Origin: a virus
Taxonomy: Duplodnaviria; Heunggongvirae; Uroviricota; Caudoviricetes
Reading direction: 5' to 3' (one strand)
DNA length: 39,096 nucleotides
IMG/VR virus record: IMGVR_UViG_2851971941_000002
Shown here: in pieces, positions 37,990 through 39,096 of the stretch
Numbering within the stretch: position 1 is the first letter of the stretch
How the letters are laid out: each line of letters opens with the position of its first letter
Notes under the pieces: generated by a model
Seen by the model: the letters and a program-made list of their open reading frames with translations, nothing else
Databases searched by the model: none
Told to the model about the DNA's origin: nothing
Program-made: the position numbers and the translations under genes

Positions 37990-39096
37990 GAATAATGTTT
38001 CAGTCCCGAACTTGTATCCGCTCTATAGCAGAAAAGTAAATAAAGTTTATTGGCGATATAAGCATCCAGTGACCGGGAAGTTTCATTCTTTGGGCACAAA
38101 CGAAGCTGAAGCCATTGCTATTGCCACTGAGGCCAATACACGCCTAGCTGAGCAAAGAACCCGGCAGATTCTAGCTATCAGTGACAGGATCGCAACCAGC
38201 AAAGGAAAAGCAATCACAACGTCAACCTGGTTAGATCGCTATCAAGCAATCCAGGAAGACAGACTGAAAAGTGGCGATATAAAGCTCAACACCTATAAAC
38301 AGAAAGCCAAACCAGTATCCTTGCTCAGGGAACGAGCAGGACTGAAGTTAATTTCAGCCGTTGATGTCAGGGATATAGCCCAGTTGCTTGACGAGTATAT
38401 CGCCGCCGGACAGCCGAGAATGGCGCAAGTAGTTCGTTCCGTACTGATTGATGTTTTCAAAGAGGCGCAACACTACGGAGAAGTCCCCCTGGCTATAACC
38501 CGGCATTAGCCACCAAACAGCCCAGAAGAAAAATTACCCGACAACGGTTAAGTCTTGAAGAGTGGCAAAAAATCTTTGATATCGCTGATGCCAGTCATCG
38601 TTATATGGGGAATGCCATGCTGTTAGCACTGGTTACCGGCCAGAGGTTAGGTGATATCTCGCGTATGAAATTTAGCGATATTTGGGATGATCATCTCCAT
38701 GTCATCCAGGAAAAAACCGGGAGCAAAATCGCCATCCCGCTTTCCCTGCGTCTCAATGCGATTAAATGGAGTTTGCGCGATGTAGTAGCCCGCTGCCGTG
38801 ACTATGCTGTCAGCCCATACCTTGTACATTTTTTTCGTACTACCTCACAGGCTGAACGCGGCGCGCAGGTTAAAGCCAATACATTGACGATGAATTTCAG
38901 TAAAGCGAGGGATTTAGCAGGAATTAACTGGGGTGAAGGTTCTCCCGCAACATTTCATGAACAAAGGTCTTTATCAGAACGTTTGTATAAAGAACAGGGT
39001 TTAAATACACAAAAACTACTTGGTCATAAAACGCAACAGCAAACCGATCGTTATCATGATGATCGAGGTAAAGGATGGAGTAAAGTAGCGTTGTAA
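37970..39096 (+). pseudogene. int: lambda-family tyrosine integrase, frameshifted near 38495-38509
   Basis: N-terminal part (37970-38509): PNLYPLYSRKVNKVYWRYKHPVTGKFHSLGTNEAEAIAIATEANTRLAEQ, like lambda Int PPNLYIRNNGYYCYRDPRTGKEFGLGRDRRIAITEAIQANIELFS; C-terminal part continues in another frame from about 38506 (ATKQPRRKITRQRLSLEEWQKIFDIADASHRYMGNAMLLALVTGQRLGDISRMKFSDI...FHEQRSLSERLYKEQG...LLGHKTQQQTDRYHDDRGKGWSKVAL), like lambda Int ...LAVVTGQRVGDL...FHELRSLSARLYEKQ...LLGHKSDTMASQYRDDRGREWDKIEIK. Confidence 0.85.

Follow-up and report, generated by a model that had tools for sequence, protein, structure and literature searches.

Both e14 and phage 21 use the same attB, located in icd. The e14 element of E. 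coli K-12 is a 15-kb remnant with intact intE and xisE genes, and its ability to excise is established (Brody, Greener and Hill 1985, as cited in PMC6379469). PAI-icd, an island carrying Iss and the Sit system, is found in many ExPEC strains, e.g. 536, UTI89, S88 and LF82, and its reported size is 46-54 kb (PMC7545054). Ramisetty and Sudhakari described grounded prophages, in which lysogeny is rendered irreversible by mutation of the recombinase gene and is followed by piecemeal deletion (2019, PMC6379469).

The DNA discussed here, a stretch of 39,096 nucleotides that is termed the window throughout, very probably holds an integrase pseudogene within a lambdoid prophage at icd that is grounded, or excision-dead, and of the sit/iss “PAI-icd” kind, in ExPEC E. 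coli. Like PAI-icd, it represents a lambdoid prophage-derived island of similar size at icd with sitABCD and iss; the state of int and xis in PAI-icd is not described in PMC7545054, and the intE allele of the window occurs in only 80 of 5,426 complete E. coli genomes. The locus shares with e14 the 20-nt overlap of xis and int, and a site beside icd, from which int is separated by a slot for variable cargo. This is in contrast to the state of the genes themselves, which are intact in e14, whereas int is frameshifted and xis is 5'-truncated here, and to the extent of the element, which is a 43-kb lambda-like backbone rather than a 15-kb remnant. No conceptual difference separates the locus from the grounded prophages of PMC6379469, of which it is presumably one more instance: a recombinase gene is mutated, and the head and tail genes are gone in strain FDAARGOS_536, though kept in the window strain.

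The window begins with the tail fibre, lom, J and a complete lambda-like tail, head and terminase module, continues with iss, the lysis genes, Q, the nin region, an alpha/beta hydrolase and an inverse autotransporter, and ends with P, a frameshifted O, an IS3-family element split by ISEc21, xis' and int'. The prophage cargo includes the bor-like serum-survival lipoprotein gene iss (23914-24255, plus strand), the alpha/beta hydrolase (28373-29416, plus strand) and a Lom/Ail-family outer-membrane protein (2798-3397, minus strand). The intimin/invasin-like inverse autotransporter of 1,302 aa (29453-33361, minus strand) is inserted between the nin region and P.

The surroundings were read from genomes that carry DNA identical to the window. 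Beyond the window on one side are sitABCD and, past them, a 168-nt icd' remnant, and on the other a PtuA-like ATPase, an HNH nuclease and icd, the last ~3 kb past int. The element is flanked by icd on one side and by a second copy of the icd 3' end on the other, both junctions being outside the window. The icd 3' end and the remnant region are 90% identical over 254 nt, which indicates that neither att junction, at icd or at the icd' remnant, has been lost from the related genomes. We also note that the cargo between int and icd (43284-45658 in the numbering of a related genome, outside the window) is a two-gene, defence-like pair, of which the ATPase is a PtuA-like AAA protein (PADLOC PtuA, E 4.8e-239) and the HNH nuclease matches PDC-M01B (E 6.5e-114). 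The content of this slot varies with the intE allele: K-12 has lit there, WR3-3 a DUF262 protein, OkiPb01675 a TPR protein, and GF131 both Dam and an ATPase.

The gene for the e14-like, lambda-family tyrosine integrase occupies 37970-39096 on the plus strand and is read in two frames. The 5' ORF of intE' (37970-38509, plus strand), established from the ORF list and alignment to intact alleles, encodes 179 aa ending in EVPLAITRH: native codons 1-173, comprising the arm-binding and core-binding domains, are followed by LAITRH and a TAG. The last native residue in frame 0 is Pro173 (CCC, 38486-38488), and LAITRH are out-of-frame residues. The 3' part of intE' (38488-39096, plus strand) lies in the -1 frame and consists of native codons 174-375 (linker and catalytic domain) and TAA; the native continuation PGYNPALATKQ begins at 38488. 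This downstream frame, open from 38452 to the stop at 39094-39096, reads ...SPPGYNPALATKQPRRK..., is also given in translation as ...SPPGYNPALATKQPRRKITRQRL..., and has ATG at 38605 as its sole start codon. Continuous single-frame coding of all integrase domains is not found, a stop being situated at 38507-38509.

The preliminary description had reported an integrase split by a frameshift, with a first half ending at 38509, a second frame open from about 38452 and a start at 38605. The ORF list and translations agree with all of these coordinates, and the two halves are in different frames owing to a single-base deletion. The frameshift itself stands, but the interval proposed for it (38490-38510) does not; this interval holds only six out-of-frame codons and the stop, and the lesion lies 1-5 nt to the left, in a C5 run at 38485-38489 (plus strand). 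It was located there, from DNA alignments and a base-by-base listing, through the alignment to intact integrases that had been recommended, run with the intact intE alleles of K-12 e14, WR3-3, OkiPb01675 and GF131; intE has one single-base gap relative to these four.

The window reads GTCCCCCTGGC at the lesion, with the C5 run at 38485-38489. The corresponding codons are GTA CCT CCT GGC (ACCTCC) in K-12, GTC CCT CCG GGC (CCCTCC) in WR3-3, GTT CCA CCA GGG (CCACC) in OkiPb01675, and GTC CCC CCG GGC (CCCCCC) in GF131. One base has been lost within 38485-38489, presumably either by slippage that shortened an ancestral C6 (GTC CCC CCT GGC) or by removal of the T from CCCTCC. The C6 run of GF131 suggests contraction of an ancestral CCCCCC-T by slippage; nevertheless, the deletion in codons 173-174 may be either a lost T of CCCTCC or a C6 contraction, which the sequence does not separate. 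Past the deletion, the gene runs from Pro174 to its end with no further lesion and no stop in the 202 downstream codons.

Because the lesion sits in a C run that is C6 in the intact allele of GF131, and some sequencing platforms make errors of homopolymer length, the gap could be put down to faulty sequencing or assembly of a short homopolymer, with the gene in reality intact. A megablast search with 37850-39096 (1,247 bp) against 5,426 complete E. coli genomes found intE in 501 genomes, with identity to the window of 99% or more in 81 records. A 70-bp segment spanning the lesion is 100% identical in 81 independent complete-genome records, which represent 80 of the 5,426 genomes; the carriers are isolates of human, dog, cockatoo, bandicoot and river-water origin, and many groups took part in sequencing them. 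The 30 best 1,247-bp matches, and seven more sampled evenly to about rank 76, are all 100.0% identical. No otherwise identical allele with an intact frame or C6 was found in the collection, nor any record at 95-99% identity for the whole gene, and a run of 5-6 nt is too short for systematic miscalling. The identity of the segment in 81 records argues against an assembly error, and the lesion appears to be neither chance nor an artefact of reads or assembly; an error is extremely improbable. The frameshift in intE is already known, as RefSeq/NCBI annotates identical copies as “intE, site-specific integrase, frameshifted” (pseudogene).

The same tract raises the question of phase variation, i.e. 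reversible C5/C6 switching of integrase expression, for which a homopolymer and a C6 version in another allele (GF131) would be the raw material. However, C5 is what every one of the 81 records shows, the destruction of xis and the regulatory region is irreversible, and the contingency tracts known to us are far longer than 5-6 nt. Switching of this sort is barely credible.

The preliminary assignment of the gene to the lambda family of integrases is corroborated by Pfam and by a full-length match to lambda Int. In the 5' ORF, residues 1-73 match Arm-DNA-bind_1 (PF09003, E 5.8e-38), and the 3' part matches Phage_integrase (PF00589, E 2.4e-16) and the lambda Int catalytic domain 1ae9 (E 1.7e-35). 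Re-addition of one base gives a protein of 375 aa with V-P-P-G at the site, which matches both families (Arm-DNA-bind_1, E 2e-37; Phage_integrase, E 2.2e-17) and aligns with the lambda Int structure 1z1b over lambda residues 16-354 (E 3e-56), thereby sharing its arm-binding, core-binding and catalytic architecture. The IntE/XisE genes are 89% identical to those of K-12 e14 at the nucleotide level, and the restored protein is 96% identical to K-12 IntE (362 of 375 residues in our own comparison of the translations). The catalytic motifs TGQR, KTGSK, HEQR, LGHK and DRY, which contain the R-K-H-R-H-Y residues and correspond to the conserved TGQR, KTG.K, HExR, LGHK and Y of lambda Int, are all kept, only in the -1 frame. 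Unlike lambda Int, the protein has its frame broken at the equivalent of T161/T162 in the 1z1b alignment, a position that we take, from the lambda Int structures, to be the linker between the core-binding and catalytic domains, and its attachment specificity is for icd rather than attB-lambda. By descent intE' is a lambda-family member, as a pseudogene. Phage record ON470584.1 (vB_EcoM-689R6) has an int-xis pair that is 93% identical to that of the window and is identified by annotation only, as an integrase and an excisionase-like protein; since this pair exists, the integration module has phage relatives.

Comparison with three intact alleles gives dN/dS of 0.03-0.10 in both halves of the gene. 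The allele appears to have been under purifying selection until recently, with the deletion as its only lesion; the low dN/dS together with the stop-free 202 downstream codons points to a lesion that is recent relative to allele divergence. The undamaged downstream frame fits a recent lesion, and residual selection would also fit. Translation would leave the frame after Pro173, in the linker between the core-binding and catalytic domains, and the sole product expected in quantity would be the 179-aa arm-binding and core-binding protein without a catalytic domain. Recombinase activity is predicted to have been lost.

The loss might be bypassed if programmed or leaky -1 frameshifting on C_CC.C (38485-38488) restored a functional full-length wild-type Int. 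The downstream frame is indeed -1, the downstream ORF is undamaged, and slippage of tRNA-Pro from CCC (38486-88) to CCC (38485-87), followed by CCU GGC, would yield the V-P-P-G of the intact alleles. C_CC.C is among six tetramers that are prone to shift if a strong pseudoknot follows, while tetramers without a stimulator shift at 0.147% compared with a background of 0.112% (Sharma et al., PMC4066793). The 98 nt downstream of the motif, however, have a minimum free energy of -14.8 kcal/mol against a shuffle mean of -14.6 kcal/mol (z = -0.07). The motif is also missing from the other alleles examined, all of which are in frame (CCT CCT, CCT CCG, CCA CCA, CCC CCG), which suggests that C_CC.C is a mutation and not a conserved recoding site. 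Moreover, excision needs Xis as well as Int, and xis is truncated. With no conserved motif, no downstream structure and stimulator-free tetramers at background, programmed -1 frameshifting was rejected, and it is highly unlikely that recoding of either kind restores a working integrase; a leak of about 0.1% full-length Int is conceivable.

Truncation of xis, which the preliminary description had claimed as well, is borne out by alignment to the xisE of K-12 and WR3-3 and by loss of the Exc domain. Homology to xisE begins at 37850, and the remnant (37850-37989, plus strand) consists of codons 37-81 of 81, codons 1-36 being gone. In place of the first 106 nt of the gene (35 codons and one base) stands the end of an IS3-family element, the border being at 37849/37850. 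The 20-nt overlap of the remnant with the start of int is that of intact loci. Intact XisE of K-12 and WR3-3 matches Pfam Exc over residues 5-75 (E ~2e-12), whereas a search of the 45-aa remnant gave no Exc match. An intact excisionase upstream of and overlapping int, expected of an e14/phage-21-type icd-targeting module, is not found. The 62-aa “excisionase” annotated by NCBI/RefSeq has its GTG start at about 37801, inside the IS end.

The inserted element (35233-37849, minus strand) is an IS911-like member of the IS3 family, as judged from sequence, ORFs, the annotation of identical DNA and IS911-family matches, with terminal TGTAGTGG at both ends; its end next to xis is ...CCACTACA at 37842-37849. 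It is itself split by ISEc21, of the IS110 family (transposase ORF 35566-36642). The element stands in place of the prophage DNA that would separate O from xis, and its border with xis falls in codon 36. The flanking triplets, TTT and CAC, reveal no target-site duplication, which suggests that an IS-linked (IS-mediated) deletion removed the immunity/early-left region. A scan of 37700-38700 for promoters and terminators returned nothing above shuffle expectation. We also note a T-run at 37769-37775 (an A-run on the strand of IS orfA, at its MKKE... start), in which the window lacks one base that Z1323MEC0001 and FDAARGOS_536 have; over 39 kb, the window and Z1323MEC0001 differ by no other indel.

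On the other side of the element, the replication gene O (34309-35219, minus strand) is frameshifted into two ORFs in the ORF list (34530-35204 and 34309-34530), and RefSeq notes an identical copy as “replication protein, frameshifted”. The start of O is ~14 bp from the IS end. The neighbouring P gene (33611-34312) is intact. None of cI, cro, N, cII or exo/bet/gam remains between O' and xis' in the window.

The proposal that the element is locked in the chromosome is strengthened by these losses, as the immunity/early-left region is missing between O and xis and O is frameshifted; from its sequence, the element is presumably immobile. In this presumably grounded prophage, the N-terminal 36 codons of Xis have been lost to the IS911-like element, and the same IS lies where the immunity/early-left region should be, next to a frameshifted O. 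With int, xis, the early region and O all damaged, the prophage would then be unable to induce, replicate or excise by its own means, and the element would be inherited vertically with its cargo. Without exception, the 80 genomes have the frameshifted allele at icd and, attached to it, the same IS-truncated xis. The frameshift, the IS-xis'-int' junction and the int'-ptuB-ptuA-icd junction are each carried by the same number of genomes (80), as expected if the lesions arose once and were then inherited vertically. With both att junctions still in place in related genomes, excision of the element might in principle be driven in trans, were an e14- or phage-21-type phage to provide a matching Int and Xis.

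Comparison with related genomes provides a view of subsequent decay. The window is 99.97% identical to E. coli Z1323MEC0001 over 39 kb. In BLAST comparison, FDAARGOS_536 is collinear with the window only over 26531-39096; it has identical int and xis lesions, and the segment corresponding to 6876-26530 (tail, head, terminase and lysis; ~20 kb) is deleted. FDAARGOS_536 also has an additional IS4 in J. Its loss of head and tail genes is further decay, as expected after grounding. Of the 35 substitutions between the two over 26531-39096, 33 cluster in a 1.3-kb segment of the nin region (26531-27844), which has the look of a recombination patch and not of clock-like divergence. The remaining ~11 kb, 27845 to the window end, contain two substitutions and one 1-nt indel.

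The small difference over this last segment argues for clonal closeness of the carriers, which bears on whether the split gene has been kept for a new role. The 173-aa fragment might occupy the att arm sites of incoming phages of the e14/21 type, or each half might act as a polypeptide of its own. The break lies exactly in the inter-domain linker, such that the N-terminal product contains two complete domains, and the sequence is 100% identical in every record listed among the 81 (80 genomes). Nevertheless, identity among clonally related genomes is uninformative on selection. Furthermore, a start at 38605 leaves out codons 174-211, some 38 residues at the beginning of the linker and catalytic domain, and the native promoters (pL, and pI, which by analogy with lambda we place within xis) fall in the deleted segment. 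A new role for the fragment or the halves is therefore most doubtful. We attach a similarly slight chance to the proposal that either trace full-length Int (about 0.1% of normal) is made or the 173-aa fragment is retained as a decoy against icd-targeting e14/21-type phages.

The presumably grounded lambdoid prophage at icd fits the accepted picture of prophage grounding and domestication, and the case has little import beyond annotation. The recombination and control modules were destroyed first, by the int frameshift, the IS-linked loss of xis and immunity, and the O frameshift, and structural genes outlived them in the lineage of the window strain and FDAARGOS_536. Some strains still have the head, tail and lysis module in full, and others have lost it by deletion. 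The lesion in intE might be used to mark the lineage of the 80 carrier genomes, and the locus records the way in which an icd prophage with sit and iss came to be fixed in a single E. coli lineage.
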